The notes beneath the pieces are model-generated. The model ran no database searches and was not told where the DNA came from. It saw nothing but the letters and a program-made list of their open reading frames with translations. From positions 62,001-126,000 of IMG/VR virus record IMGVR_UViG_3300000233_000006: a stretch of 64,000 nucleotides of DNA; one strand, written 5' to 3'. A program made the translations under genes and the position numbers. Below are positions 1 through 50,684 of the stretch, one piece after another; the first letter of the stretch is position 1; every line of letters starts with the position of its first letter. This DNA is from an uncultured virus (IMG/VR IMGVR_UViG_3300000233_000006) (Duplodnaviria; Heunggongvirae; Uroviricota; Caudoviricetes).

Positions 1-216
1 TTGTTGCAACAAAAAAGCCTTGCCGCAAACTGCAAGGATGTTAATTTTAAAAGGCATCGATTTGTATTTAAGTATTCTTAGGAGTGCTTCGTTAAGAGAG
101 GGTAGCGTTATGTATTCTGGAAGTTTTATATTTCGATTAAAGACAAACTTTTTTTCAATCCCGTAGATAGTGGAAAGATAATCGTAGTAATCTACGAATT
201 TTGAAATGATTTTCAT
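1..216 (-). CDS. Hypothetical phage protein, 3' end runs off the window (MKIISKFVDYYDYL...)
   Basis: Read manually: ATG at 216, frame open to base 1; not in the ORF track. Confidence 0.7.
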   Translation of the reverse strand, partial: MKIISKFVDYYDYLSTIYGIEKKFVFNRNIKLPEYITLPSLNEALLRILKYKSMPFKINILAVCGKAFLLQQ

Positions 217-236
217 TGGGGTGGATCCATTTAAAA

Positions 237-268
237 TATCCTTTAGACGCTAGAGCGTCTAAAGGATA
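237..268. terminator. Inverted-repeat hairpin, probable terminator
   Basis: TATCCTTTAGACGC-taga-GCGTCTAAAGGATA just after the stop of 275..673. Confidence 0.7.
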
Positions 269-274
269 GTGTAA

Positions 275-673
275 TTAACTTAAAGTTAAGACGGGGTTGA
301 TGTAACCTGCCTTCATCAGAAGGCGCCGAATGATGATAAGGTCACTATCGGCTAAATCCGGTATCGTGATCGTCAATAAAGACGTCGTAATAAGTTCGAT
401 GGAATCGAGATTGATCCATTCTAACGCAAGTATAGTGCGTATACTTCCGGAGAGTTCGAACAAAACGTAAGTGTAGTTCTCAGGCCGATCTGGAACGCCG
501 TTGGCTAGAAGGTAAGGATAAACCGTACGGTGTTTAGATTCGACGTTATCGATAATCATTGCCGATCGGTAATCCATTATTGAAGAGACGCGTGCGCGAT
601 CAAGCGTTGCACCAAGAACAATAGGTGCCAACGTATCAAACTTATAGGTTTTTCCAATCTCAAAAGGAATCAT
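275..673 (-). CDS. Conserved jumbo-phage hypothetical protein
   Basis: 132-aa ORF in a tightly packed minus-strand operon. Confidence 0.75.
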   Translation of the reverse strand: MIPFEIGKTYKFDTLAPIVLGATLDRARVSSIMDYRSAMIIDNVESKHRTVYPYLLANGVPDRPENYTYVLFELSGSIRTILALEWINLDSIELITTSLLTITIPDLADSDLIIIRRLLMKAGYINPVLTLS

Positions 674-678
674 TTTTC

Positions 679-1071
679 TTACTCCGTATAAACGACAAAA
701 TGTACGTCTTGCCTTGTCACACGATTGATCGAAAGCATTTCAAAATCTAAATCGAAAATATTCGATTCTTTACAGCGTACCCATAAAAGAATCGCTAAGT
801 TATCTCGGATCCTACATATGAGTTGATATTTTACAGGATCAATAAGGACAGATGCAAAGACAGGAGGGATGGGGTGATTTCTTAAATAGTTAATGAAGTC
901 ATTGAAATTTCGATTCATGGAGTTCATAATAAACTCCATAAGTGCCGTTAAGGCATTCATGGCGTAAATAGAGTCTGACTGACCTTCGAAAAGTTCTATG
1001 GTCTCTTTCCTTAGTTCTATAAGGTCATCACCTAAATCAAAGATGACGTAGTAGTTTCTGTCATAGTCCAT
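679..1071 (-). CDS. Hypothetical protein
   Basis: 130-aa ORF, operon packing with 4-5 nt gaps. Confidence 0.75.
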   Translation of the reverse strand: MDYDRNYYVIFDLGDDLIELRKETIELFEGQSDSIYAMNALTALMEFIMNSMNRNFNDFINYLRNHPIPPVFASVLIDPVKYQLICRIRDNLAILLWVRCKESNIFDLDFEMLSINRVTRQDVHFVVYTE

Positions 1072-1075
1072 AATT

Positions 1076-1417
1076 TTAACCTGTAATTAAAAGACCGTTG
1101 CGATTTTGCCATCTAAAGAATCTAAAGTATTCGACGCTATAGTCGTAAATCATATCGACCTCATACCAAAAATTTTCAGAGACGTTCTGATAAAAAAGGT
1201 TGGCTTCTTCAAAGTTAACTCTTGTTTGCGAACTTAACGATTCAATAACGTCATTAATAATTTCTTCGTTATAAAATCCTGGTATGGCTGAGGACGGTAT
1301 TTCGTAACGTTCTATGAACGTTCGTATGGGAAGTACCTGGATGACAGGTTTGATGTTGTAGGGTATTTTAAACCCTAGTGTTTTTGGTATTTCGATATAA
1401 ATAAGTCTAGATAGCAT
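1076..1417 (-). CDS. Hypothetical protein
   Basis: 113-aa ORF overlapping the upstream stop. Confidence 0.75.
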   Translation of the reverse strand: MLSRLIYIEIPKTLGFKIPYNIKPVIQVLPIRTFIERYEIPSSAIPGFYNEEIINDVIESLSSQTRVNFEEANLFYQNVSENFWYEVDMIYDYSVEYFRFFRWQNRNGLLITG

Positions 1418-1784
1418 CGTCTCGTCCTTCGATAAATAAAACGCAACAAACGTTCTTAAATTCTAGAAGTTTTAGATTAAAGACATTAACTTGAGTGACC
1501 TCAAGTATTTCATCTAGAGCGCTTTCAATCGATTCGACGTACATCAAAAGGTTTACTTTAAACTCAAGATTTCCGTCGAAGTAAAGATCGATCTCTTGTT
1601 CGTAAATATCGAAAACGAACTGGGCTGCCGAACCATAGGTTGATCTAGGGATGGTAAGTAATTCACGGATGACTTCTTCAACAGGAGGAAGTAATTCGCG
1701 GTCATTTTCGAACACTTCAATTATTGAAGATAGGTCGCAGATAAAGATTTTCTTTTTTTCTTCTACGAATTCATTCGCCGTCAT
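1407..1784 (-). CDS. Hypothetical protein
   Basis: 125-aa acidic ORF immediately downstream of the IscB element. Confidence 0.75.
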   Translation of the reverse strand: MTANEFVEEKKKIFICDLSSIIEVFENDRELLPPVEEVIRELLTIPRSTYGSAAQFVFDIYEQEIDLYFDGNLEFKVNLLMYVESIESALDEILEVTQVNVFNLKLLEFKNVCCVLFIEGRDDAI

Positions 1785-1805
1785 AGGAGTGGATCCATGG
1801 ATGGG

Positions 1806-1870
1806 TCACGACCCCGAAGGCATGAGTCATCGCAGACATGTCTGCGGGACTTCCTTCGGAACGATCGTGA
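1806..1870 (-). other. Right-end stem-loop of the IscB element
   Basis: Nested pairs TCACGA/TCGTGA, CCGAAGG/CCTTCGG, AGTC/GACT around palindrome CGCAGACATGTCTGCG (1831-1846). Confidence 0.7.
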
Positions 1871-3202
1871 TCAGTGAGTGTAACGGTAACCGTCTGTTCT
1901 TGAACAGACGGTGATCGGAGAGGATGACGGGATGTCGATCGACATCCCACCGTATGTCACGCGTAGAGACCTTGTCGTATGTACGAGTGAAGTCACGCGT
2001 GACGTGTCCGTGACACCTTGACGACGACCTGACATCAAGGTGTAAGTGACGATGTCACCGGTACGGACACCGCGAAGGGTGGATGAACCCTTCGGACGTG
2101 TTGAGGGGAAGCCGTAACTGTCGGTGCGCACCATGCGTCTCGACACGTGACCGACGGCATGGGCGTTAAGGGGCTTAAGGGTTGGGTCGATAGGGCAAGA
2201 GGGTGGCGTGTCGACACAGGCGGCATCAACCCAGTGCTCCTTAGGAGCACGTAACGACGTTCGGTTCATGTGTGTCACCCAGGAGGGTGTACGCACTATC
2301 GGAACGAACGTCGAGAGCGATTTAAACAACGCGTTGTTGGACGAGTTGACAGCGGCGGCATCGCGTAGCGTGCGACGCTGTGCACGCACCTTGGGTGCAT
2401 ACTGACGGATCGCGGTATGGTGTGCGTTGGAAGTCGTGAGCGACGCGATCCAAGCCTCTATCGATAAATTCGATTTAGACTGGTTGCATGTGTAACATGC
2501 AAGCGTGGCATTATCGAGGCTGTCGGAGCCGTGGCGCGAGCGAGGGACGATATGATCCCAGGTGAGACGTTTATCGCCGCTCGCACCATGACAGTATTGA
2601 CAGGTGTAGTTATGTGCCATGCGTAGGTAACTACGCATCTCCATCCCGAAGGTGTCTGAGGTGCCTGGAGTGACGTGGCGTGTTTCTGGATGTTTAAGTC
2701 TTTGGAGGTCGAACTGAACATGTTCAGTGAAGACCATATTGAGTGGGGTGAAGCGCTGAAGTCGCTTCACCCACGTCACGATGTGATCCACCCTCGACTG
2801 CACCGATGGTGGGAGCCAACCGTCACGACGAGTGCGATTAAGGAAGCGACGAGCGCGATAGCGCGTGTGACGCGCGCGACGGTTGCTACGATAGCTACGT
2901 CGCTGAAGGAGTGCTTTTTGAATCGCGTTACCTCGATGATGGAGATGAAGCGCGTAGATGACTCGCGACCCGTTCTTGCCGTGGATAACCAGGGCAAGTC
3001 CGGTCGTCTTGGAGCCAGGATCGAGTTTAACATCTAGCGGCTGAATACCGCCACCGACTCGATCTTTCAAGACGATCGTGAACGGTGTGCGACGTAAGAC
3101 CGCAGCACGTTGCTTGGTAAGCAACTCACGTGCACGCCCTGGCGTGCACGGCATGAGTGGTTGACGCTTCGCATCAACCACGAAGACGTAGTTCTGAGAC
3201 AT
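1871..3202 (-). CDS. iscB: RNA-guided endonuclease IscB (PLMP, split RuvC, bridge helix, HNH)
   Basis: PLMP motif; RuvC-I LDPGSKTTG; Arg-rich RRSYRSNRRAR helix; RuvC-II TEHVQFD; HNH CQYC..DHIVPRS..N..LACYTCNQSK; RuvC-III HWVDAACV. Confidence 0.95.
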   Translation of the reverse strand: MSQNYVFVVDAKRQPLMPCTPGRARELLTKQRAAVLRRTPFTIVLKDRVGGGIQPLDVKLDPGSKTTGLALVIHGKNGSRVIYALHLHHRGNAIQKALLQRRSYRSNRRARHTRYRARRFLNRTRRDGWLPPSVQSRVDHIVTWVKRLQRFTPLNMVFTEHVQFDLQRLKHPETRHVTPGTSDTFGMEMRSYLRMAHNYTCQYCHGASGDKRLTWDHIVPRSRHGSDSLDNATLACYTCNQSKSNLSIEAWIASLTTSNAHHTAIRQYAPKVRAQRRTLRDAAAVNSSNNALFKSLSTFVPIVRTPSWVTHMNRTSLRAPKEHWVDAACVDTPPSCPIDPTLKPLNAHAVGHVSRRMVRTDSYGFPSTRPKGSSTLRGVRTGDIVTYTLMSGRRQGVTDTSRVTSLVHTTRSLRVTYGGMSIDIPSSSPITVCSRTDGYRYTH

Positions 3203-3209
3203 AAAGAGG

Positions 3210-3511
3210 TTCCTATAAAAACACTGTGAGTTACCTCACACACTTGCGTGTAAAGTGGTCCTCGACAAGGTTCAGCAGGCTTGTCGTGTGTGTCACACCG
3301 AGACGTTGAGCTCATCTCTTTTAATGACACACGACAGAGCGGAAGACTGGATCAGACATCCTCCGGTGTCATGACCTGCTGAACGTAGTGCATTTGCGTG
3401 CACTGAGTCTGGTCATCAAGGATCCGTAAGGATCCATCTATCAGTCAGGGTCAGGGAAGACCCTGACTGATAGATCACTCACTGACGACTGCTTTCCTCT
3501 TAAAAGTATTC
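3210..3511 (-). ncRNA. omegaRNA (HEARO-like) with 5' guide at about 3490-3511
   Basis: Minus strand carries hallmark blocks TGACCAGACTCAG, CTACGTT, GACACC..GGATG..CCAGT..CTCTGTC, CAAGCC..AAC..TTGTCGAGG..CTTTAC; first stem GTCGTCAG (3482-3489) pairs with TTGATGAC (3412-3419); ends approximate. Confidence 0.85.
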
Positions 3512-4134
3512 ATCCAATCGACGATTCGATAATCTTCGCCTTTTTCAATGACGATCGAAAGCCCTGCTTTTTGGGTTTTTACAAAGTAAAGGTTCCAAAC
3601 ATCGTTATCGATAAAATTATCGATCTCGTCAAAAAAGTCTTCAGCAAGTTCAATAATCACTGACGTATCAAACTCTGACGCCAGGGGATGGTTTGGGTTA
3701 AGCGCAACGCTTAACGAGGTCGGTGATTTACGAAGACTTACTTCAGGGAATTTGGACTCGATGTAATTTTTAATCACATTAAAGACGATGTCGATCCAAA
3801 CGACATGGGATTCTGGGAGGTTTTTGATCATACCTTTCTTTAGCTTTTTAAAGGGTGTTAGATCATAAACAAGCTCCATGTATTTATTGTAAATCATTCC
3901 AACTTCAAGAACGTCTTTAAAGTCTTTGGGGTAAAGACGGTAAAATACCCCTTCTTTGGATATTGCGTAAAGCTCGTCACTGTATAAAAAGAGTGGTTTG
4001 TTTTTATACAATATGTAAAATCCCCGGTACGCTTCTATTGCAATTAAACCGTTGAACCTAATATCGAGACGATTAATAAGCGTTTCTAATGACAAGACAC
4101 ACTTAGATAATACTTTACTTGTATAATTGGACAT
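3475..4134 (-). CDS. Hypothetical protein; last four codons (VVSE*) probably supplied by the IscB element
   Basis: 219-aa ORF; inferred element boundary falls exactly on a codon boundary (3489/3490). Confidence 0.8.
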   Translation of the reverse strand: MSNYTSKVLSKCVLSLETLINRLDIRFNGLIAIEAYRGFYILYKNKPLFLYSDELYAISKEGVFYRLYPKDFKDVLEVGMIYNKYMELVYDLTPFKKLKKGMIKNLPESHVVWIDIVFNVIKNYIESKFPEVSLRKSPTSLSVALNPNHPLASEFDTSVIIELAEDFFDEIDNFIDNDVWNLYFVKTQKAGLSIVIEKGEDYRIVDWMNTFKRKAVVSE

Positions 4135-4145
4135 GACATTTGAAC

Positions 4146-4436
4146 TCAGATAAAAGTTGAAAGAACGATGGCCATTGATGGACTTACGGTAGCCTGTAGA
4201 AAGATATGTCGTCCGGTTGTATTAAAGCTCTTGATGTTGTTGTTAGAAAGTGTAGCTTTAAAACGGTTAAATAGACTGGGGTAGTTTCTTTCGATGCTTG
4301 TGTAATAACAAATATCTTCAGGAATAACGTCTCGACCGACGACGGTTGTATCAAACGAGGTAACGTCGGATAAAAACCGGTTAAAAATAATTGTCATAAG
4401 TTCGATGGAACGTGCGGTAATGTCGACGACTTTCAC
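4146..4436 (-). CDS. Hypothetical protein
   Basis: 96-aa ORF in operon; start uncertain. Confidence 0.55.
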   Translation of the reverse strand: MKVVDITARSIELMTIIFNRFLSDVTSFDTTVVGRDVIPEDICYYTSIERNYPSLFNRFKATLSNNNIKSFNTTGRHIFLQATVSPSMAIVLSTFI

Positions 4437-4614
4437 GTATATTTTCCATAGAAAAACTACGAGGATAGGCCGATCCGATATACCAACCTAGATTACCGTG
4501 GTCACGTAGACGACCTTCTTCAGACACATTGATCGCATCGATACATGCGGTATACAAGTCATCGAAAAAAGATACGTCGGATATTACTGTGATCGTATAA
4601 CGATTATAATCCAT
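4381..4614 (-). CDS. Hypothetical protein
   Basis: 77-aa ORF with GAGG RBS; overlaps the next ORF by 56 nt. Confidence 0.55.
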   Translation of the reverse strand: MDYNRYTITVISDVSFFDDLYTACIDAINVSEEGRLRDHGNLGWYIGSAYPRSFSMENIRESRRHYRTFHRTYDNYF

Positions 4615-4667
4615 ACAAGCCTCGTTTTATATGTCTAAAAGATCAGTCTGAGTTTTTAAAAAAATAC

Positions 4668-4701
4668 ATGCTACAGCGAGCTGAGAGGCTCGCTGTAGCA
4701 T
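4668..4701. terminator. Hairpin terminator after phuZ
   Basis: ATGCTACAGCGAG-8 nt-CTCGCTGTAGCAT, with a T-run downstream on the minus strand. Confidence 0.75.
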
Positions 4702-4706
4702 TTTAA

Positions 4707-5693
4707 TTAAAGGATGATACCTAGACTGTCAGATGAACTTACGGCGTCTTTAGACGCCAGTGATTTGGGTGTACGAAGCGAAGACTCTTCACCATACTTC
4801 GCTTCGAGACCTGATAAACGACCTAGGTCGATTTGAAGACGTCCGTCCACCGTGATGGCGTGGATCTGATCGTACGCCGTCATGTTTTCTGCGACAAAGT
4901 TATTCATATAACCGACCGCATGATAGTCAACCATACACCCTAGAGTGCAGTCTTCTTTAGCGATCGAGAGAGCCGAATAAACTTTTTCAGAACCTTCGAG
5001 AACCACGGTTTCTTCATAGACCTCGATCATCACCGCCTTAGGTTGATGCGGTGTAACCACGGTATAGTCCATGAAGTTCAGAAGGTCAGAACTGTCAAGT
5101 TCCTGGTGCACACCAGAAAAGAATAAAGACATCACGCTAATGAACGATATCGCGGAAGCGTCAGTCATTGAGCGTGTTTGGCTTGAACTGTTTTCAAGGT
5201 AATGTATGAGAACAGGCTTCGAATACATTTGGGCCATGACATCGTAGCCGGTAATGACTTTGATGGTGTTATTCACTTCGATACGACTTGACGTCGAACC
5301 GATCAAGAGAACCATGACGGGCAAGCCGCGCTTAATAAGTTCGGAAGCGATTACAGGACCGATTACCGACCCTGAACCACCGGATGCCGAATGCACGACG
5401 ATATTTAAAACCTGGCTAGGTTTAAAGTCCGTCAATACATCACCGTGCTCGCCAACGATCGCTTCGTAGTTCATACTACGCAAGCCACCCGAACCGTCGC
5501 GACCTTTAAAGATATAGATCGACGATAGGTCGATACGATCCAAATGTTTTAGATTGGACATCGACGTGTCTAGAAAGGCGATGTCGTACTCGGACATACC
5601 GTCTGTATGTTTTTCGAATAGACCTAGGTTCTTGCCTAAGATGTTGACGCCTGCGCCGCCACATGCGTAAATGCGAATTTGATTTGTGCTCAT
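4707..5693 (-). CDS. phuZ: Phage tubulin PhuZ
   Basis: IYACGGAGVNI, GSGG and tubulin signature SGGSGSVIG; 328 aa; hydrophobic C-terminal tail (GIIL). Confidence 0.93.
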   Translation of the reverse strand: MSTNQIRIYACGGAGVNILGKNLGLFEKHTDGMSEYDIAFLDTSMSNLKHLDRIDLSSIYIFKGRDGSGGLRSMNYEAIVGEHGDVLTDFKPSQVLNIVVHSASGGSGSVIGPVIASELIKRGLPVMVLLIGSTSSRIEVNNTIKVITGYDVMAQMYSKPVLIHYLENSSSQTRSMTDASAISFISVMSLFFSGVHQELDSSDLLNFMDYTVVTPHQPKAVMIEVYEETVVLEGSEKVYSALSIAKEDCTLGCMVDYHAVGYMNNFVAENMTAYDQIHAITVDGRLQIDLGRLSGLEAKYGEESSLRTPKSLASKDAVSSSDSLGIIL

Positions 5694-5694
5694 T

Positions 5695-6258
5695 TTAAAG
5701 ATCCTTAATTTCGATAAAAGTGACTTTATCCATCACTATGAGGTATGATTCGCCTTTGTTTTGGGGGATAAGCAAAAACTCGTCTCTTAATTTATCATGA
5801 AAATTAAAATTTTCGACGATAAGCTTCAACACATCCTCGTTGACAAAGTGGATGATCATTTCCTTTTCACCGCTTTCTTCAGTGACCGGAACACTTTTTT
5901 TACATTCGTTTTCCGTGCGAAAGGTTTTTTCCCCACGACTTAGGAAATTAAAGATGGTGACGATATGATTTTGCTTTAGTCTAGAGACTTCAAGTAACTT
6001 TTCCTCTAAATCCGTATGGTACATAGGCACTTCACTAATGCTATCGATCATGTCTACGACGTCATCACCCTCTTTAATATCATTAAAGTGATCGGGGATA
6101 AACTGTCTTAGGAATACGTTAAGCATATTTTTTAGCACAGCTTCGACTTCGCATTCTACGTATTTAAAGTAATTGTTAAAATCACTTGAAACGAAGCAAA
6201 CGAAACGTCCTGAAGTAAGACGTACTGAAAAAATAGAACGGTGGTTTTTTTCGATCAT
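5695..6258 (-). CDS. Hypothetical protein co-transcribed with phuZ
   Basis: 187-aa ORF, GAGG RBS, downstream of an early promoter. Confidence 0.75.
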   Translation of the reverse strand: MIEKNHRSIFSVRLTSGRFVCFVSSDFNNYFKYVECEVEAVLKNMLNVFLRQFIPDHFNDIKEGDDVVDMIDSISEVPMYHTDLEEKLLEVSRLKQNHIVTIFNFLSRGEKTFRTENECKKSVPVTEESGEKEMIIHFVNEDVLKLIVENFNFHDKLRDEFLLIPQNKGESYLIVMDKVTFIEIKDL

Positions 6259-6304
6259 GACACGAACCTCTTTTTAAACGTTAACGGAAATGTTAACCAC
6301 ACAA

Positions 6305-6312
6305 GTAATATA
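6305..6312 (-). promoter_or_regulatory. phiKZ-type early promoter TATATTAC
   Basis: Exact motif upstream of the phuZ operon; 16-nt identity (AAGTAATATAGCTTTG) with the copy at 7529-7544. Confidence 0.75.
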
Positions 6313-6327
6313 GCTTTGTAATAATTT

Positions 6328-6375
6328 ACATGTCATAGAGACTGAGGGCGCTAACCCTCAGTCTCTATGACATGT
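6328..6375. terminator. 21-bp perfect stem-loop downstream of the tRNA
   Basis: ACATGTCATAGAGACTGAGGG-cgctaa-CCCTCAGTCTCTATGACATGT. Confidence 0.7.
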
Positions 6376-6383
6376 TATTTGAA

Positions 6384-6459
6384 TGGTGGGTCTGCCGAGA
6401 TTCGAACTCGGAACCCAAGGATTATGAGTCCTCTGCACTAACCGTTGTGCTACAGACCC
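6384..6459 (-). tRNA. tRNA with CAU anticodon, most likely Ile2 (lysidine type) or elongator Met
   Basis: GGGTCTGTAGCACAACGGTTAGTGCAGAGGACTCATAATCCTTGGGTTCCGAGTTCGAATCTCGGCAGACCCACCA; cloverleaf, TTCGA loop, encoded CCA; G1:C72 argues against initiator. Confidence 0.93.
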
Positions 6460-6468
6460 TGTATTTTT

Positions 6469-6768
6469 TTACCAGTTATTACCAAGGTGATTACCGAGGG
6501 TATCCATCAGAAGTTTGGGTACAGCACAAATCAGTGTTTTACCTGAACCTACAAAGGTTACACGACTTCCTTCAGTAAAGTTAGTTTCAAACTCCATTGA
6601 AAAATTTACGTTATCCACAGTAATAACGATGTCCTTATCGTCCTTAATCGTAAGGGAAAACGGACCACCGTTCTCACCCTTTTTCATTTTGAATGAAACG
6701 ATCTTACCTTCACCATCTGCACCAAAACCTGTGTAAATGATTTTACCCAGATAAGAATTACTTGACAT
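6469..6768 (-). CDS. Hypothetical protein
   Basis: 99-aa ORF, AGGTGA RBS. Confidence 0.75.
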   Translation of the reverse strand: MSSNSYLGKIIYTGFGADGEGKIVSFKMKKGENGGPFSLTIKDDKDIVITVDNVNFSMEFETNFTEGSRVTFVGSGKTLICAVPKLLMDTLGNHLGNNW

Positions 6769-6789
6769 GACAGATCACCTAAAAGATTT

Positions 6790-6818
6790 AAAAAAAAAAA
6801 AGCGTACGTTAAGTACGC
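6790..6818 (-). terminator. Intrinsic terminator
   Basis: GCGTAC-ttaac-GTACGC followed by about 12 T on the minus strand. Confidence 0.6.
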
Positions 6819-6820
6819 AA

Positions 6821-6988
6821 ACAGTACACGAGGGACTCGTCGGCTTATAACCTTATTATCGCCAAACCCAAGACACTTCATACGGGTGAGTAAATAGAGG
6901 CAAAAACCCCACCGTATACGAAGAGCCAAACCTAAGTTTACGGCCTGAAAAGTTATTATTTATTACCGACGAGTCTCTCGTGTACTGT
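6821..6988 (-). ncRNA. Candidate structured non-coding RNA of unknown class
   Basis: 23-bp closing inverted repeat with 1 mismatch, inner stem and a 12-nt internal direct repeat; strand inferred from context. Confidence 0.5.
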
Positions 6989-7001
6989 ACTAGCATACGA
7001 T

Positions 7002-7499
7002 TTAAGCGCTATCAACCTTTTCTTTAAAATCCCTAATGAAAAGTTTTACTTTTCTTACTAGGTGCTCAACATCGCTTCTTGCACTTTCTGACTGAGACGC
7101 AATATGCGACTTACGAATACTCGGAACAGAACTACCTTTAAGCCGATTGGCGGCTTCAGCGATGTTGTTCAAGTACGAGATAGCGTTAATGTAATCATCA
7201 ACGATCGAGTGTGCCATACTCACAAGACGGCCGCCTGATGCTTCGGAAAGAACCGAGGAAGGTAAACTTGTTAAAGATTTGAAAATTTCAACCTCACGTT
7301 GAAGTTCAAAAAGATCAAAAGGTTTAGCTTCGGTAGGCGTCGATACCACAGGATATGTTTCAACATAGTTATTTTTTACAACAACTGGAGATTTCTCACG
7401 AGGGACCGAAGAATCGAGAACGATCTCACTAACCCTAATCTCAATTTTTGGAATGATAATAGCCCGTTTTTTCTTTAGGACTATGTTTTCAAAAGCCAT
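7002..7499 (-). CDS. Hypothetical early protein
   Basis: 165-aa ORF, GGAG RBS, directly behind a TATATTAC promoter. Confidence 0.8.
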   Translation of the reverse strand: MAFENIVLKKKRAIIIPKIEIRVSEIVLDSSVPREKSPVVVKNNYVETYPVVSTPTEAKPFDLFELQREVEIFKSLTSLPSSVLSEASGGRLVSMAHSIVDDYINAISYLNNIAEAANRLKGSSVPSIRKSHIASQSESARSDVEHLVRKVKLFIRDFKEKVDSA

Positions 7500-7530
7500 T
7501 TTTGTGCTCCACGAAAGTTAGTTCATGAAA

Positions 7531-7538
7531 GTAATATA
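7531..7538 (-). promoter_or_regulatory. phiKZ-type early promoter TATATTAC
   Basis: Exact motif about 30 nt upstream of the 7499 ATG. Confidence 0.75.
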
Positions 7539-7604
7539 GCTTTGATTTTTCTTAGATTCAGGTCAAACGATAAGGGATGTTTCTTTATTTTTTTAAGTGA
7601 AAAG

Positions 7605-8090
7605 TCTCGCGTGTGTCCGCGCGTATATCAAGGATCGCACGCATGCGTCCGCAGGTGTGTGTGCGTGTGTCCGCAGGTGTGTGCGCGCGCACCGGCCTGC
7701 GCCCCCGCGCTCCCGTGCGCGCCTGTGCGCGCTCACGCGCTCCCGTGCGCGCCCCCGCGCCCGTTTAAAGCTACACATGTACACGTGCGTATATTATATA
7801 AAATATTATATATTTTATATATAAATATACACATGCGTATATGTATATATTAAATAAAAATATATAATATTTTTATAAAACGTGCGCCCGGGAGCCTAGG
7901 CGCCTGTACGCGTGTTACGCGTAAGCTAAGGAGAAGAAAATGAAGATTTATTTTGAAAATAAAGATTTTCAAAAATCAAAACTCCATGAAACTAAAAAAA
8001 ATCAAAGATTTTTTAGAAAAAGTTAAAAAAAAGCAAGTGTTAATTAACGCGCGCGGGCGGGCGGGCGCCTGATACGCGCGGTCTAGTGAA
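7605..8090. repeat. Low-complexity non-coding region of GC repeats flanking an AT-rich core (origin-like)
   Basis: Direct repeats CGCGCTCCCGTGCGCGCC (7706, 7736) and GTCCGCAGGTGTGTG (7647, 7669); nearly pure A/T tract about 7790-7880. Confidence 0.6.
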
Positions 8091-28328: not shown

Positions 28329-31300
28329 TCATCGTTTTTTGTAAATGTCAACCGCCTTTTTACCGATAAGTAAAAGAAGCGTATTAGTGGTCCCAAGAAT
28401 ATCGGCAGAATTGGTAATACGCGCAAGTTTTGAGCGCTCACCAAAAACAAGATCGACTTCTTCACCCTTTTCAGTGGTCATAGTTGATTCAAGTTGTTCA
28501 CCAATGACCGATTTAAGTTGATGTCCGACGACGATCTTATCGCCAACACCCGTTCCGTTAATTTGCGTAATGAAAATTCTAATCTCGGCTTGTCCAAAAA
28601 CCAAACGATTCCCTCCTACGCTATACGAGTCATCAACCTCACCTACAAAAGGTTTATTTAAAGTTGACTTAGCTTCAAGCGTAAACTGACGATCGCTTTG
28701 GTCGACGATCTTACGAAGACTTGGACTCATGTCTTCCTTATCACCGTTATAGAAAACTTCAATACGGTCGATCGAACCGTTGATTTTTGCACGCGGAGCT
28801 TTATTCGAAAGCTTCTTAAGAAGTTCGATCGAAGCTTCATTAAATAACCCACGTTCATTACTTATCTCATCTTCGATGAACATTAGAAAATCATTGGGCT
28901 TAACGCGCTGACCTGGTGTCACGATGTTCAGTACGCCGTCTTTAAAGTCAATAACGATAGAGCGCCGTTCTGTAACAGGTGCCGAAAGTCTGGATGCTAA
29001 TTTAGAACTGATTGCTGAAGAATCTTCGAGCGTCTGTTGTGATTCGTAAAAAACGGTTTTGGCAAGTAAAGACGATTTAAAAATAATCTTTCTAGGATCA
29101 AAGAAATCAGGCTCAAAAAAGCCTGAGTTATACGCCAGCGTATCCCCTCGCTTAAACGTATCTTTGATATTTAAAGCTGTTCTGATGTCGTGTGGATAGG
29201 CATGACCTTCGGCATATCCATAACGACGACCAAGGTAAATACCAAGTCGTTTACCGTCGCTATATTCGACGATCATACCACGCGCATCCAGCGAAATCAC
29301 CTGACCATCTTGTTCTGCCGTAGACGCAAACTTAGACGTTACACGTTTTGAAATAACCTCTTCAACACCCGTTCGCACAAGCGGTTGCGTATAACTTACT
29401 GTCGCGATGGTGTGCGATTGCTGAATCGATATAAATCCAACGCGTTTTACGTCATCTTGCTGAGCACCTGCTGAAAGCATCATCGATGTCGAAGCAAGTT
29501 GTGCAGGACGTATATCGGTCAGTTCAGCCTTCTTAATAGTCCCTCGAAGTGAGTTAAAATTAGGATCGGTTGTGAGGTAAGTCGTAACGCCAACGTCCGC
29601 GCTGTCTGAGCTCGATTCTGAGATGACACCGACGTCATGCGGATGAAATATCCGTGTATCAGGACTCATCGCTTCTTTACTACGACCACCTTCACCTGAA
29701 TACGTCACACGTTCTTTTTGTTTTAAATCATCTAAAGGATTGATTTCTTGTTTAAGCATAATGGACGGATCCGTCGTTACAGCTTGCCATACTGAAAACG
29801 GACTCATCGTAACGGATGACTTACCACGAATACCCGACATTCGGTATTCACGTAAAGCCTGAACTAAAACCTTGTACGTGATGCCAGAGAACCGTTCGTA
29901 ACCTTTAATGCGCATGTAACGCATATCCGTGAGATCGGGATGCATGTCATCAGTGAGAAGTTCGGCAGAACGCACAAGTAACCCTTTGTACGTTGTTGGT
30001 TCCTTGATCTCGGTGAGAAGAACCTCGGTAATCGGATCAACAAAAAGCTGATCAAGAAGTTCGATTTCTTTTAGGTAAATCGAATTAAGTTTTAAACTTT
30101 CAGTAATGACGAAGTAAGCATCCTTACGGTTAAAGTCAGAATACGAAAGGCCGCTTATAATTTTCTTGTACGGTAAGAAACCCGCTAAAATAAGTGAGGC
30201 CTGTTCATGCTCACGTGAGACTACCATGACGACATCCGCAAAACTAATAGCGAATTCATCTGGCTGCAAATCAAAACGTGAACGTCGTTTGTAAAACTTA
30301 GGTTTGTATTTAAGGATCTTTAAAACATGGTCGATTCCGTTGATGTATCCAAGTGGAAGAATCAAGGGGATGTCTTTACTAAACACAGATACCGTCACAT
30401 AATCGACAGGAAGCCTTTGTTTATCGAGACCAGTTACATTGAAAAAGTCGTCAACGATTACAAACGTTGATTTTCCTTGTTCGATAAGGATGTTTGAGCG
30501 TTCGTCTAAATAGATCTTCACTTTACGGACTTTATCGTGTCCCACAAACGTTAGGTCGTTACCTGCCTTTATTTGAGGCTGTGTAAAGTCAAAGATATAG
30601 TCTTTAGTCTCAAATCCAGACATCGCCATGGCCATGCCACTATAAAGCCTCGGAACTTTAACATTATTATCAAAGACACATCCCGGGACGATATTTTCAA
30701 TCGTCTTATCTTCATTGTCGAGGCCTTTTGCAAGAACCTGACGCGATAGCCAGCCGATCGCATCACTCACGCGCTTTTCGCTACGACGAACAAACAGTTT
30801 TCCGTAGTATGTCGTCAATGCAACGGTAGACTCGTCGACTTTTCGAATGGGTACGTCAGCACGCTGTTTACCCATTTGATAGGTATTACCCGAGATCATA
30901 AAAGATCCGTCGGATTGTACTTTAGGTAATCTAAAACGGATCATTGACGGTGCACCGTCAATAGGCTTGACTCGTAACGTATGGACGTCAAACTCGCCGA
31001 GTATCGAAGCTTCTTCCTCGACCTCATAATCTTGAATGATCACACCTGCGCGCTGTAATGCTAAAGGCATGGAGATAATATCGTCTCGCATGACGTTTTC
31101 AATGTAGTCCTTATCAAAAACATTTAGAGATGTTCTTGATTGACTTTCATCAAGCAAACCACTTGTTACAGGATACGTTGCTTTTTCTTCACTTAAAACA
31201 AGTCGTGTTGGTTCAACACGGTTGAGTGTATGAAGGGGTCGTTTTGAGCCGTAGGGGTCGTCAAGTTTTTTATAGTCCGCGAGGGACTTTAAAAGGTACT

Positions 31301-32567
31301 TATATTCAGAACCCGTCATTAAACCACCGTCAAGCGCTACTTCAAGACTTTTTACAAACTCATCTTCAGGTAAGTTAGACTGTTTAAAAAAGAGATCGTG
31401 TTCTTCTTGACTTAACTGAATATCTGTTCCAACGTCTTCTTCTGGAGACACGTCGTCAGACTCATCTCCTTTAACGTCATTCGTTTCGTCTTTAGGTGAA
31501 AAACTTTCAGTCCCCTCATCGTCATCACTAACCGCGGCGTTAGTTTTAGTCTTAGCTACGGAAGATAACGTACTCGTCATCATCTCGCGTTTCTTTGTAT
31601 AACCTTGATCAAGTTTATTGAGGATGTCAAGATCCTCACTAACCTCTTCAGACCGGACGTCGTCCTTAATTAGAACACCGTCATCATCAAAATTCTCATC
31701 GATAACATCTTCAGTCTCAAAAGACTGGATTGACATTAAGTAACGTAAGAAATATTTCTGAAGCGTTTCTGAATTTAGATGACTTAGTTTAAGCCCGTTA
31801 TCTTGTTCTTCATTAAAAATCGTATCGAGGACATTTAAATTAACAACTGACCACGAGTCCTTAAATTTAAAAACGACGTTCACACGACGTAAGTCTTCTT
31901 TTCTGATTTTTGACATCAGTGACAAATTACGCGTATCTAAATTTAACCACTTCCAAAACTCAAGAATGTATTTGCGTCCATCGGTATCAAAGATACGCAT
32001 CTGACTAAAATTAACTTTGTCAACATAATTCCTAAGATTTGGAATACCGACAAGCGTTTCAGGAACATCGATAAAAACAAAATGGTTCTTTTCAATGTCT
32101 TTTGTTTCGAACTGAATTGAATCCCATACTGTTTCATGGACGTTTCGCCATGCGTGATAAGCGTTAATAGGTGTGTCACTATAAATGTAACCTCCCCACA
32201 AAAGACCGTAAGAAATCACGTCAAGCGTATTAGGATTTGTGTTGACACGTACCGGCGTTTTAACCCACTTAAAGTTTTTGTTCTTTGAATGAAAATGACG
32301 AATTAAACCGATCGGCTGTCGAGACGAGCGCCTAGGATGTCCTTCGGTAAATTTCAAGTAATAAATGTGGTCAATATTGTACCTGAGATCATCTTTAATA
32401 AAAGGCAACATTTCTTCAGGAAAAGGTTTCTCAGCACTACCAACATAATGCAATACTGAATTTTTAGGGAAGTCGAATACGTCTTCTGTAAAAACTCTAG
32501 GACGTAATAATTGCTGCGTCTTATAAATACCGTAGCGTTTATAAAACATATCGTAAAGCATTTTCAT
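28329..32567 (-). CDS. Virion RNA polymerase beta subunit, N-terminal/main part (phiKZ gp178-like)
   Basis: 1412 aa; GEGGR, G.ISESSSDS..VG, QQSH, EDSSAIS, GDKIVVGHQLKSVIG beta motifs. Confidence 0.92.
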   Translation of the reverse strand: MKMLYDMFYKRYGIYKTQQLLRPRVFTEDVFDFPKNSVLHYVGSAEKPFPEEMLPFIKDDLRYNIDHIYYLKFTEGHPRRSSRQPIGLIRHFHSKNKNFKWVKTPVRVNTNPNTLDVISYGLLWGGYIYSDTPINAYHAWRNVHETVWDSIQFETKDIEKNHFVFIDVPETLVGIPNLRNYVDKVNFSQMRIFDTDGRKYILEFWKWLNLDTRNLSLMSKIRKEDLRRVNVVFKFKDSWSVVNLNVLDTIFNEEQDNGLKLSHLNSETLQKYFLRYLMSIQSFETEDVIDENFDDDGVLIKDDVRSEEVSEDLDILNKLDQGYTKKREMMTSTLSSVAKTKTNAAVSDDDEGTESFSPKDETNDVKGDESDDVSPEEDVGTDIQLSQEEHDLFFKQSNLPEDEFVKSLEVALDGGLMTGSEYKYLLKSLADYKKLDDPYGSKRPLHTLNRVEPTRLVLSEEKATYPVTSGLLDESQSRTSLNVFDKDYIENVMRDDIISMPLALQRAGVIIQDYEVEEEASILGEFDVHTLRVKPIDGAPSMIRFRLPKVQSDGSFMISGNTYQMGKQRADVPIRKVDESTVALTTYYGKLFVRRSEKRVSDAIGWLSRQVLAKGLDNEDKTIENIVPGCVFDNNVKVPRLYSGMAMAMSGFETKDYIFDFTQPQIKAGNDLTFVGHDKVRKVKIYLDERSNILIEQGKSTFVIVDDFFNVTGLDKQRLPVDYVTVSVFSKDIPLILPLGYINGIDHVLKILKYKPKFYKRRSRFDLQPDEFAISFADVVMVVSREHEQASLILAGFLPYKKIISGLSYSDFNRKDAYFVITESLKLNSIYLKEIELLDQLFVDPITEVLLTEIKEPTTYKGLLVRSAELLTDDMHPDLTDMRYMRIKGYERFSGITYKVLVQALREYRMSGIRGKSSVTMSPFSVWQAVTTDPSIMLKQEINPLDDLKQKERVTYSGEGGRSKEAMSPDTRIFHPHDVGVISESSSDSADVGVTTYLTTDPNFNSLRGTIKKAELTDIRPAQLASTSMMLSAGAQQDDVKRVGFISIQQSHTIATVSYTQPLVRTGVEEVISKRVTSKFASTAEQDGQVISLDARGMIVEYSDGKRLGIYLGRRYGYAEGHAYPHDIRTALNIKDTFKRGDTLAYNSGFFEPDFFDPRKIIFKSSLLAKTVFYESQQTLEDSSAISSKLASRLSAPVTERRSIVIDFKDGVLNIVTPGQRVKPNDFLMFIEDEISNERGLFNEASIELLKKLSNKAPRAKINGSIDRIEVFYNGDKEDMSPSLRKIVDQSDRQFTLEAKSTLNKPFVGEVDDSYSVGGNRLVFGQAEIRIFITQINGTGVGDKIVVGHQLKSVIGEQLESTMTTEKGEEVDLVFGERSKLARITNSADILGTTNTLLLLIGKKAVDIYKKR

Positions 32568-32570
32568 ATA

Positions 32571-34184
32571 TCAGTCTCCAGTGATGTTCCTTAGAACATA
32601 AGAAATTGTATCAGTCTCCGCGCTCGCATTAAACGAACCTTCGAGATTAATATAGTATTTTCTTGATTTAAGTAATTGATCAACTTCGGCGATGGCCTCG
32701 TCACTATAAACAAAATCTAAGGAACAGCGATCGCCGTCAAAGTCGGCTCCAAGACCAGCTAAACGACTTGGATGAGGTCCGATCGTATTAAAGAACCCGA
32801 TGTCCCGAACCGGAAAATGTTGAGCAATGACTTCGGTTGGATTCCAGTCATCATCGAGCATGGTTAGTCGCAACTCTCTGACCGTTGTTCTTAAGAAAAG
32901 TTTAGTAGGAAAGATACTCCCGGTTCCAGCAACAGGGTATCGTGTCAAATACGCTGCATAACGATGAGCATATTTAAAAACCGAAAGATAAAAGAGTTCA
33001 GCCGCCGTGATCGGCTTGCAATCGTCGATCGAACGTCCCTCAGGAAGTGCTTTAGGATCGTAAATGACTTTAAGCTCTTTATTGGGTCCAATATAAACCA
33101 TGGCAAGATAATAGTCTTCGTAATCAAGAATCTCGTGCCGTAGCTCTTCTTCAGAAAAACGATTAATGCGACGTTCCAATCCTTCGATGCTCATCCATTC
33201 ATCATAAAACTCATGATGCACGTAAACTTCTTCAGGCATTAATGTCTTCTTATTAATGAGTTTAGCTAAACCCTGTTCATTAATAAAAATGTTTGAGAGG
33301 ATCTCATTTCGAATTTGGAAAACTGCAACCGGTAAAATACCTTTAATATACTGAAACAAACCCACCATGGTTTGGTTTAGACTGAAGTTACTCTCTTTAT
33401 GAAGTTCAGTCGGCCTATAGATCGATGAAGAAATAACGTTCATCGTTCCGTTAAATAGCGAGCGCGCAGCCCACTTACCAAGGATAAACTTCTTCTTACC
33501 CTCAAGCATCCCCATGATGTAATCATAAACGCTATTCGCCGCAGTCTGAATACTGATCGCCGCACCATTAATAAGTTCAGGCGCGCTTTTAATCACGACG
33601 TCATCAACAGTGAACGAAGACGATAACATTTTTCTATAGAAGGTATTGATTTCATCTTCCGAAGGTTGCCCGTTATCGTCGACCTCATAATCTCGAAATC
33701 CAGCAGGGATAACAAGCCAGTCCGTGAGTAAAGCTTCGTTTCGATACTTCTCAAGAAGTTCAATATTGACCGAACGTCGAATACTTTCGTTTTCTTTAAA
33801 GATAAGGTCTGTAAAATGTTCCATGAAGAAATGAAATCCGGTACGTCCTTCGGTAGGACTGGAACGTACAAAATCTTTTTCCTTTTTATCAAAGACTGCA
33901 TAGGCCTTGCCTAGCATAATGTCTTCATAAAGACCTTTGAGCTTTGAGAGCGTTTTAAAAATGATAGGGTGGAAAAAAGGTATCTTGGCGTTGATATAAG
34001 CAAACTTAATATATCTCGAAGGTTCGCCCATTTTCCCGAAATATTCTGTACTAAACAAACCTTCTGGATGAAGGTTCTTACTTGAACCATTAACAATGTC
34101 AAGAACTTTGATTTGGTTCATGTCTTTTAGTTGGTCAGCATTGAGTTTTAACAACTCAATGTTAAATGGCTTCTGCTCAATCAT
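32571..34184 (-). CDS. Virion RNA polymerase beta-prime subunit, catalytic part (phiKZ gp180-like)
   Basis: 537 aa; GLFSTEYFG, RYP and catalytic ADFDGD. Confidence 0.93.
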   Translation of the reverse strand: MIEQKPFNIELLKLNADQLKDMNQIKVLDIVNGSSKNLHPEGLFSTEYFGKMGEPSRYIKFAYINAKIPFFHPIIFKTLSKLKGLYEDIMLGKAYAVFDKKEKDFVRSSPTEGRTGFHFFMEHFTDLIFKENESIRRSVNIELLEKYRNEALLTDWLVIPAGFRDYEVDDNGQPSEDEINTFYRKMLSSSFTVDDVVIKSAPELINGAAISIQTAANSVYDYIMGMLEGKKKFILGKWAARSLFNGTMNVISSSIYRPTELHKESNFSLNQTMVGLFQYIKGILPVAVFQIRNEILSNIFINEQGLAKLINKKTLMPEEVYVHHEFYDEWMSIEGLERRINRFSEEELRHEILDYEDYYLAMVYIGPNKELKVIYDPKALPEGRSIDDCKPITAAELFYLSVFKYAHRYAAYLTRYPVAGTGSIFPTKLFLRTTVRELRLTMLDDDWNPTEVIAQHFPVRDIGFFNTIGPHPSRLAGLGADFDGDRCSLDFVYSDEAIAEVDQLLKSRKYYINLEGSFNASAETDTISYVLRNITGD

Positions 34185-49256: not shown

Positions 49257-50684
49257 TTATTTCTTCTCAAGCCAATAAGGGTGGTAGCGACCGACGCGCA
49301 TCTCCAATAAATCAAGCGTCGATAAAAAAGGACGTTCCTGGTTTTCATTATTAAACACCCAATATGGACGTGAATTAAGTAAAATATTCCAGTCATAACC
49401 TTTAGCTTTAAGATCTTCATAAAGCTCTTTAGGTGTACAGATAAGTTCTTTGGGAAAGTTTTTCCACAACTTAAAAATCTGACACATTTCGGATGTGTAC
49501 AGAATCGCTGTCCTAAGTTTCTGATCGTCATCAATTTTAGACCTTACCGTGGGACGTGTAAGTTTAACGTCTGGATAAAGTGATAGATAATAATTAACGT
49601 TATTACCTTCAAGACCGAAACGGTCTTCATTTTTGATGTAATTAAATTCAGTCAAGGAAGGTAAGACACCTTCTGTTTGAGAGACGATAATCTCTAAATG
49701 AAACCCTGACGTTCCGGCCTTACCACGTAATTGGCGCATACTGACAGCAAACAAATCAACGTCACCAGAAACCTGATCCGAGGAAAACTTGGGGTATTCA
49801 GGTGCCTTAGTGCCTTGGTTAATTAAAGGTGCTGTATGGAACGTCTGCCAGCAGTTATTAAGCAAGAAAAAGAAACGGTCTGTGACGCCTTTAAGTTTAT
49901 CGCCATTTTTCAAACCTTGTAATTTCTTAGCAGGAGGGGGTGCGTACGGTCCTTTAGCGATCTCCATTTCCTTACCCACGTGACCGGTCATTAAAAAGAA
50001 ATGGCCGGAATTACCTGCGATGGTAGGAATGTCCATTAGGAAGCGCGCCTTACTAAGACCCTGGCGCATAAAGACGATGTTACCGCCAGACTCACCGAGA
50101 TCATTATCGTCCTGCAACTTAGCCACATCTTCAGTTTCAAATTCGCTTAAAGAGTCAATTTCACTGAAGGTTGGTGTGACAACCTTCAGAAGTGTTTTAT
50201 TATCACGATCAAGAAAAGGCGATTCGATCATCCAATCTCTTGTATTATCTTTCTTAGTCTTTAAATAATCCTTAAGGATACGATACCATTCATTTGCATA
50301 ATACTGGGATTTATCGCTAATCGACCAGATGCCGTCATTGAAGATATCGCCCGTCGGTTCGGTCTTTTTAAGCTCAGGAAACCGTGCAAGAAGATCCTTA
50401 AGATGAGATTCGTGTTTATTGATTTCAGTATCAAACGTCGTAACATGTGTCTGGTGCGCAGGAAGAACTTTCGATAAAGCAGACGCTGTCATGTAGTGCA
50501 TGATCGTGGATTTGAAGCTGTTCCCAATCCCCACAACTCCAGTAATCGCGCCAAGTCCACCGGCAAGAAGGTTTTCGCCGTGACGACCTTTAACATAATA
50601 ACCTGTAGGAATATCGAGTAAAGCGCCTAGATTTATCATGGTCTTAACGCTAGGTATTTGTTTAAAGCCAGGACGATCGTTCAT
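49257..50684 (-). CDS. uvsX: UvsX/RecA-like recombinase (phiKZ gp152-like)
   Basis: Walker A GIGNSFKST, FDTE, Walker B EIDSLS; 475 aa; synteny. Confidence 0.85.
   Translation of the reverse strand: MNDRPGFKQIPSVKTMINLGALLDIPTGYYVKGRHGENLLAGGLGAITGVVGIGNSFKSTIMHYMTASALSKVLPAHQTHVTTFDTEINKHESHLKDLLARFPELKKTEPTGDIFNDGIWSISDKSQYYANEWYRILKDYLKTKKDNTRDWMIESPFLDRDNKTLLKVVTPTFSEIDSLSEFETEDVAKLQDDNDLGESGGNIVFMRQGLSKARFLMDIPTIAGNSGHFFLMTGHVGKEMEIAKGPYAPPPAKKLQGLKNGDKLKGVTDRFFFLLNNCWQTFHTAPLINQGTKAPEYPKFSSDQVSGDVDLFAVSMRQLRGKAGTSGFHLEIIVSQTEGVLPSLTEFNYIKNEDRFGLEGNNVNYYLSLYPDVKLTRPTVRSKIDDDQKLRTAILYTSEMCQIFKLWKNFPKELICTPKELYEDLKAKGYDWNILLNSRPYWVFNNENQERPFLSTLDLLEMRVGRYHPYWLEKK

Follow-up and report, generated by a model that had tools for sequence, protein, structure and literature searches.

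An IscB-omegaRNA element with occupied and empty alleles in a phiKZ-like jumbo phage, probably spreading by homing

A 64,000-nt stretch of DNA from an uncultured virus (Caudoviricetes; IMG/VR record IMGVR_UViG_3300000233_000006), hereafter the window, carries a gene for the nuclease IscB and one for its omegaRNA on a single element of 1,705 nt, located at 1785..3489 on the minus strand in the end of a small phage gene. The window comprises bases 62001-126000 of a 127,910-nt record whose completeness is rated 48%. With a probability of about 0.7, we read 1785..3489 as an IS200/IS605-type IscB-omegaRNA element without a transposase, made up of an omegaRNA gene, an intact iscB and a short far end with hairpins, that would spread by homing, with expression, cleavage and homing predicted from the sequence. 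The data show both element ends, alleles in other samples that the element does not interrupt, insertion at a second site and conserved catalytic columns in the nuclease. The type of element is already known, and its lifestyle here is probably polymorphic and of the homing type.

Empty alleles and the boundaries of the element

Contigs of four runs (X4, X6, X7 and X9), holding 24-67% of the sampled words of the region, were aligned to window positions 401-5000. In three of the four, a contig joins 1784 to 3490 (X4, 5,229 nt; X6, 4,429 nt; X7, 1,930 nt); all three leave out 1,705 nt and have seven other letters in their place, CTTCATT on the plus strand and AATGAAG on the minus strand. No X9 contig bridged the insertion site. 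Empty alleles, with the target intact, were hence recorded in three runs, and the element is polymorphic for presence at this one site among close relatives. The contigs follow the window collinearly as far as 3490 and break exactly between 3489 and 3490, where an initial annotation of this DNA had already placed one end. On the minus strand, the empty site reads AAAGCA, then AATGAAG, then ATGACGGCGAATGA, and translates to A-N-E-D-D-G-E-stop. This is the C terminus of two database proteins, P0001 and P0003, which confirms both the end at 3489 and the position of the guide. These proteins, the sole other members of the 90% cluster of the 219-aa protein encoded at the site, are 221 aa long and 99% identical to it over residues 1-215, after which they read NEDDGE versus VVSE in the window. 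VVSE and its stop (3489..3475) are read from the omegaRNA scaffold.

The other end lies elsewhere than annotated. It had been placed at 1799, with 3490 joined to 1798 so that the 219-aa gene would natively end KRKA-MDPLL and its TGA would overlap the start of the downstream gene in an ATGA coupling. The empty-site relatives in three of the four runs instead have a different junction: their contigs put the end at 1785 and join 3490 to 1784 with seven letters between, and KRKA-MDPLL-TGA is true as arithmetic only. Both the junction and P0001/P0003 give KRKANEDDGE as the native terminus, and when the C termini of homologs of 3475..4134 were compared, these two ended in NEDDGE, in neither MDPLL nor VVSE. 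The restored stop falls at 1773..1771, so that the gene pair overlaps by 14 nt and ATGA coupling does not apply. In the empty allele, an in-frame ATG within the seven nucleotides, 6 nt past GAGGA, would add Met-Lys to the downstream protein (read by eye); should that be the true start, the overlap would be 20 nt.

The far end was independently placed by a second insertion context. A 223-nt contig of X4 (depth 2.8) matches window 1782-1967 with five differences (97% over 186 nt) and then continues into unlike sequence that matches G000:C1:1236-1265 with one mismatch, about 62 kb away in this phage. There, G000 reads TTTTTAACAT followed by CGTCATCGATT, and the X4 contig reads TTTTTAACAT followed by AGGAGTGG, with the element end as at 1785. 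The second site lies inside a 130-aa gene co-oriented with iscB, and the element end again abuts CAT. This second, independent context confirms the far end at 1785 and indicates that the element has occupied two places in the phage lineage. A search for truncated versions of the 130-aa protein, which might have revealed the right-end junction there, gave a single cluster whose three members are all 130 aa long, none truncated. Within the far end, the DNA fold has z = -2.97, an 18-nt direct repeat (D4) links 1791-1808 to 3430-3447 of the other end at 78%, and subterminal hairpins topped by GGGTC/GACCC stand at both ends of this single element.

No duplication accompanies the insertion, but the occupied allele lacks seven nucleotides that the empty site has, and these are identical in two diverged empty lineages (X4/X6 and X7). 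Joining the flanks without them would fuse the two host genes in frame into a protein of about 340 aa. A phmmer search with P0001 against 1.84 billion representatives returned 30 further relatives, all of 183-270 aa, and no such fusion was present among the 31 relatives or in a word-indexed search covering 120-384 aa. Tails were aligned for 14 of the 30 relatives, namely the ten best together with P0140, P0143, P0145 and P0148. Each has a conserved core that stops at the D-W of RIVDW and, beyond it, a short tail that is rich in D/E in all 14, with at least two such residues among the last eight; P0001 has four and the VVSE tail of the window one. Given the lack of fusion-length relatives and the acidic tails, the NEDDGE form reads as native-like, and the occupied allele has therefore most probably lost the seven nucleotides. 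Loss through TnpA cutting at two tandem CAT motifs was considered and rejected, as this removes 6 nt, not 7.

Two features of the junction sequence are recorded separately. The insertion exchanges a GAGGA-type ribosome-binding context of the 125-aa gene for an anti-Shine-Dalgarno-like CTCCT (1785-1790: AGGAGT on the plus strand, hence ACTCCT on the minus strand before the ATG at 1784), and the element may thereby lower translation of this downstream gene. The empty allele also contains a 9-nt near-repeat, GCAAATGAA at the end of the upstream gene and GCGAATGAA in codons 3-5 of the downstream gene, 16 nt apart, around 3492-3490 and 1784-1769 on the minus strand, which encodes A-N-E in both proteins.

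Related DNA was also sought in sequence records. Phage records gave no megablast match to window 1-6000 and no tblastn match to the 219-aa protein. Among viral contigs, the host protein found one weak 22-residue match only, and exact searches with four patterns taken from the element ends and the flanks gave nothing; metagenome contigs, among which records closest to the window may be missing, gave no match to the host protein or to the right-end pattern.

OmegaRNA, guide, nuclease and recognition motif

Directly upstream of iscB, on the same strand, 3461..3250 scores 109.2 bits with RF02033 (HEARO), the Rfam family of IscB omegaRNAs, whose gathering score is 83. The first stem proposed in the initial annotation has 8 bp, two of these G-U. 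Equally good stems, with a partner 30-120 nt downstream, occur at 1,541 of 63,800 minus-strand positions (2.4%) and at 48 of 1,574 element positions (3.0%), so that the stem alone is mildly unusual and not decisive. In the minimum-free-energy fold of 3489..3203 (z = -6.9; none of 200 shuffles as good), however, exactly this stem, GTCGTCAG with TTGATGAC, closes a 17-bp hairpin and a GGAUCC hairpin, and one stem around two hairpins is the layout of HEARO in Rfam. With its letters where they had been placed, this fold and layout, and empty-site contigs that break at its first base, the stem stands as proposed, and the scaffold starts at the element boundary. The Rfam alignment itself starts at 3461, with the 5' arm falling within the long hairpin's loop and non-canonical pairs flagged; that hairpin evidently exceeds what the HEARO model allows. 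A scaffold start at 3461 was accordingly rejected in favor of 3489, where the fold and the empty-site break both put it.

The guide is the adjoining flank, as predicted; the 22 nt claimed for it (to 3511) include the 16-17 nt used by OgeuIscB (PMC9640706, available in part). Its match is present in the uninterrupted allele, which the bridging contigs in three of four runs establish as real. With two or fewer mismatches, the guide finds only its own flank in the 127,910-nt genome, the next best match having three. All 15 guide-side differences between X7 and the window are listed, none of them in 3490-3561; for X4 and X6, 20 of 21 are listed. None of the 15 runs sharing words with the region is listed as an RNA data set.

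The nuclease has the RRXRR (Pfam, 1e-61) and HNH (4e-12) domains and matches solved IscB structures by sequence (TbaIscB, 2e-26; OgeuIscB, 4e-19). An N-terminal PLMP/RRXRR region, a split RuvC with inserted HNH, and the catalytic residues are thus all present. In an alignment of the window IscB with nine homologs, D61, E160, H217, H323 and D326 fall in invariant columns, and the nuclease therefore looks intact. From its sequence it would be expected to cleave under RNA guidance and in dependence on a target-adjacent motif (TAM). Homologs numbered 7,429 at E <= 1e-20, the closest being 46-48% identical. Genome contigs searched with IscB yielded distant cyanobacterial loci only (41% identity over the full length, 61% over 51 residues), which were of no help in defining element ends, and a viral-contig search gave one 30-residue match only. 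All three genome-contig relatives are cyanobacterial, from a Dactylococcopsis metagenome-assembled genome (MAG) contig (L005, the full-length match at 41%), Calothrix PCC 7103 (L006) and a Symploca MAG (L007), a weak hint at the host range of the phage or the source of the element.

In the available part of the study by Meers et al. (bioRxiv 10.1101/2023.03.14.532601), the left end of the element lies directly beside the TAM, and the right end delimits the omegaRNA. There, TnpA and IscB also share one TAM, which for GstIscB is TTCAT; IS200/IS605 elements leave no scar on excision or insertion, and those with IscB tend to point in the same direction as the gene upstream. The window element agrees with this account in orientation, boundary and co-orientation. 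The TAM had been annotated as ATGG(A), but 1798..1794 is element sequence and hence not an adjacent motif. At the second site, the motif abutting the far end is ATGTT (AACAT on the plus strand), and the two contexts, GTCAT and AACAT, share just CAT. The TAM reported for GstIscB, TTCAT (ATGAA on the other strand), lies within the seven missing nucleotides, displaced by one base relative to where the guide match ends. The sequence AATGAA is compatible with MRNRAA, the TAM of IscB.m16, but not with NWRRNA, that of OgeuIscB. In both contexts, the empty sequence just past the insertion point is C[T/G]TCAT; on the IscB strand, the empty sites read AATGAAG followed by ATGAC at the first and GATGACG followed by ATGTT at the second. 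ATG sites with an upstream hexamer this close to ATGAAG make up 51 of 4,302 in the genome (1.2%), and the tandem ATGA[AC]GATG is present 11 times, where base composition predicts 2.4. With two sites to go on, a preference for tandem motifs is only suggestive. Coordinates are collected in Table 1.

Table 1. Positions of the element, its parts and selected phage genes in the window
Feature	Position	Strand	Details and evidence
Interrupted host gene	3475..4134	minus	219 aa; residues 1-215 native
Guide segment	3490..3505	minus	16 nt of host flank adjoining scaffold, TTTTAAGAGGAAAGCA
OmegaRNA scaffold	3215..3489	minus	Rfam RF02033, fold, empty-site boundary at 3489
OmegaRNA first stem, 5' arm	3482-3489	minus	GTCGTCAG
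OmegaRNA 17-bp hairpin	3436-3475	minus	Perfect; inverted repeat I1
OmegaRNA GGAUCC hairpin	3420-3435	minus	Fold
OmegaRNA first stem, 3' arm	3412-3419	minus	TTGATGAC
HEARO core	to 3250	minus	Rfam
Terminator-like hairpin, then T run	3225-3240	minus	Upstream of iscB start at 3202
iscB gene	1871..3202	minus	443 aa, apparently intact; Pfam, structure matches, catalytic columns
Element far end	1785..1870	minus	Transposon left end in TnpA convention (top strand = window plus strand); nested hairpins
Motif abutting far end	1780..1784	minus	ATGAC on IscB strand (GTCAT on plus strand)
Downstream host gene	1407..1784	minus	125 aa
PhuZ tubulin gene	4707-5693	minus	PHROG 4733, 5.6e-69
Two RNA-polymerase beta-subunit genes (split)	28329-34184	minus
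UvsX-like recombinase gene	49257-50684	minus

Homing and its alternatives

If the element homes, read-through from the host gene would yield an omegaRNA with 16-17 nt of host flank at its 5' end. IscB carrying this RNA would recognize the uninterrupted allele, where a perfect guide match is followed by AATGAAG, and would cut it when occupied and empty phage genomes share one cell; recombination, by way of the UvsX-like recombinase of the phage, would then copy the element in together with some flank. Spread of this kind would be homing, not transposase-driven hopping. The occupied allele would lack the probable recognition motif besides being split, because the insert replaces the seven nucleotides with TTCAT/ATGAA. 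Homing against co-infecting phages is listed in a review as 'non-restorative homing' (PMC13565253).

The flanks of the empty alleles differ from the window at 4-8 positions in 834-1,384 nt on the far side and at 15-21 in 1,087-1,511 nt on the guide side. Differences private to the window number 12 in 1,087 nt on the guide side versus 1 in 834 nt on the far side (binomial p = 0.007), and those among the empty lineages are even, with 8 on the guide side and 6 on the far side. The guide-side excess of window-private differences fits co-conversion. Contig k-mer depth, which is not a copy number, was 137.5 (X4) and 110.3 (X6) for the empty-site contigs and about 2.5-4.7 for small element contigs of the same runs.

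Several points weigh against homing as set out here. The insertion is not scarless, unlike those that TnpA makes of IS200/IS605 elements. The recognition motif has an ambiguous register, as the empty allele continues after the guide match with AATGAA, in which ATGAA is shifted by one; if the nuclease tolerated nothing but ATG at positions 1-3, today's empty alleles would escape cutting with the guide as it now stands. The motif at the far end is weakly conserved (ATGAC versus ATGTT). Support for co-conversion becomes weaker, with p = 0.047, when a cluster of five differences in 52 nt is counted once, and Fisher's test yields 0.077. With one X4/X6 difference unlisted, a synonymous change inside the guide match is excluded in X7 only. 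At the second site, the search for a right-end junction came up empty.

The same observations bear on other explanations. The element might have been inserted scarlessly by TnpA after GTCAT, in an allele without the seven nucleotides (GCA followed by ATGACGG, with ATGAC as the in-register TAM), and today's empty alleles would then carry a resistance-giving 7-nt insertion at the boundary of target and TAM. Scarless insertion and excision are the rule for IS200/IS605 elements in the available text of Meers et al., CAT adjoins the far end in both known contexts, and the much higher contig depth of the empty alleles in X4 and X6 is what resistant alleles might show. Such a history would require the fusion protein of about 340 aa that neither the 31 relatives (183-270 aa) nor the word-indexed search contained, the seven nucleotides are common to two diverged empty lineages, and NEDDGE resembles the acidic tails of all 14 aligned distant homologs; we consider it unlikely. 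A little less likely again is an immobile or domesticated copy, whose IscB is kept for cutting competitors or host DNA, or is decaying, and whose guide match is a by-product of position. TnpA was not found in the record, the 7-nt loss may have moved the guide out of motif register, and no IscB above 48% identity is on record, all as would be expected of such a copy. The open reading frame, catalytic columns and omegaRNA fold are nevertheless intact, the guide has no other target below three mismatches in the phage genome, and recent movement is indicated by the copy, 97% identical, that a related phage carries at a second site, together with presence/absence polymorphism among samples. As to TnpA, a search for the Y1 family (PF01797) found no match in the 127,910-nt record, rated 48% complete, with a control search that matched 6 of 14 well-known control genomes.

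The abrupt step in GC content at the element edges (54.8% within 1785..3489 versus 37-41% in the flanks) would also be produced by an assembly chimera in which GC-rich bacterial DNA had been wrongly fused to a phage contig. This is very improbable, since the 219-aa junction protein is present on two contigs from two sources, 98-99% of the sampled words of window 1-8000 were found in three runs, and the breakpoints match the first stem of the omegaRNA to the base and recur in an independent second context.

Phage context and relation to known systems

In addition to the genes in Table 1, the phage encodes a tail sheath, a terminase and an SbcC-like protein. PhuZ, the split RNA polymerase, these three proteins and the UvsX-like recombinase mark it as a phiKZ-like jumbo phage with its own recombination genes, and it is probably nucleus-forming. 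Elsewhere in the region, a 456-nt X9 contig (depth 3.9) matches 2033-2250 inside iscB without differences and is then identical to 6209-6238; the junction of 2250 with 6209 represents either a deletion of 3,958 nt, including the omegaRNA, four small genes and the PhuZ gene, or an assembly chimera, and X9 also has contigs within the 'deleted' stretch (4143-4620). A tRNA-Met gene (anticodon CAT; 6384-6459, minus strand) adjoins a long perfect palindrome at 6330-6375 (catgtcatagagactgaggg to ccctcagtctctatgacatg), probably a bidirectional terminator. At 7542-7853, a GC-rich, low-complexity island in AT-rich DNA has runs of CACGC/GCGTG and Arg/Ala/Pro-rich open reading frames on both strands.

Among described systems, the element resembles ISGst of Geobacillus stearothermophilus, the source of GstIscB, as presented in the available part of Meers et al.: its guide comes from the flank, it has no tnpA, it is co-oriented with the upstream gene, and its nuclease would be aimed at the element-free site, where the GstIscB TAM, TTCAT, is literally found in the seven nucleotides. 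Unlike the scarless ISGst, it lacks seven target nucleotides and has TTCAT one base off the end of the guide match. It also resides in a phage rather than a bacterial chromosome, its first omegaRNA hairpin is much longer (17 bp), and its IscB is at most 48% identical to anything on record. With the OgeuIscB-omegaRNA complex (PDB 7XHT, 7UTN, 8CSZ; PMC9640706, available in part) it shares domain order, conserved catalytic Asp/Glu/His columns, and a guide of about 16-17 nt lying 5' of a large scaffold that opens with a stem straight after the guide. In contrast, the sequence match to OgeuIscB is partial (E = 4e-19, in two stretches), the protein has 443 aa versus 496 aa, and the OgeuIscB TAM does not fit the site. 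The intron-encoded homing endonuclease of the nucleus-forming phage PhiPA3 (PMC11620839, available in part) is likewise a nuclease borne by a jumbo phage of the PhuZ type, and its target would be the genome of a co-infecting relative. However, that enzyme resides in an intron and recognizes its target through protein-DNA contacts, whereas the window IscB would be RNA-guided and its element truncates the host gene without splicing. A literature search combining 'IscB' and 'jumbo phage' returned nothing on the subject; in their available text, PMC8987985 is off subject and PMC13288109 concerns Cas13.

These data add to the family occupied and empty alleles seen directly in different samples, a second insertion site, the loss of target bases, and a phiKZ-like jumbo phage as host, in which an apparently intact nuclease of the kind ancestral to Cas9 is now placed. 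The environmental data reveal not only the IscB-omegaRNA element but also its exact empty target and a second place of insertion, so that guide, target and motif can be read as a triple. The 7-nt target loss, which includes TTCAT, departs from the scarless rule of the family and, if recurrent at the second site, would point to a different way into DNA. More tentatively, and with considerable doubt, the element may represent a transposase-independent, RNA-guided homing element of nucleus-forming jumbo phages that uses sites of the form R-ATGAM-G followed by ATG, replaces the 7-nt motif rather than being inserted next to it and acts inside the phage nucleus, where its IscB-omegaRNA complex would have to cut co-infecting empty genomes. 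Few nucleases can enter that nucleus; if this reading is true, the element would supply the first RNA-guided one known to operate there and would be a natural gene drive caught while still spreading.

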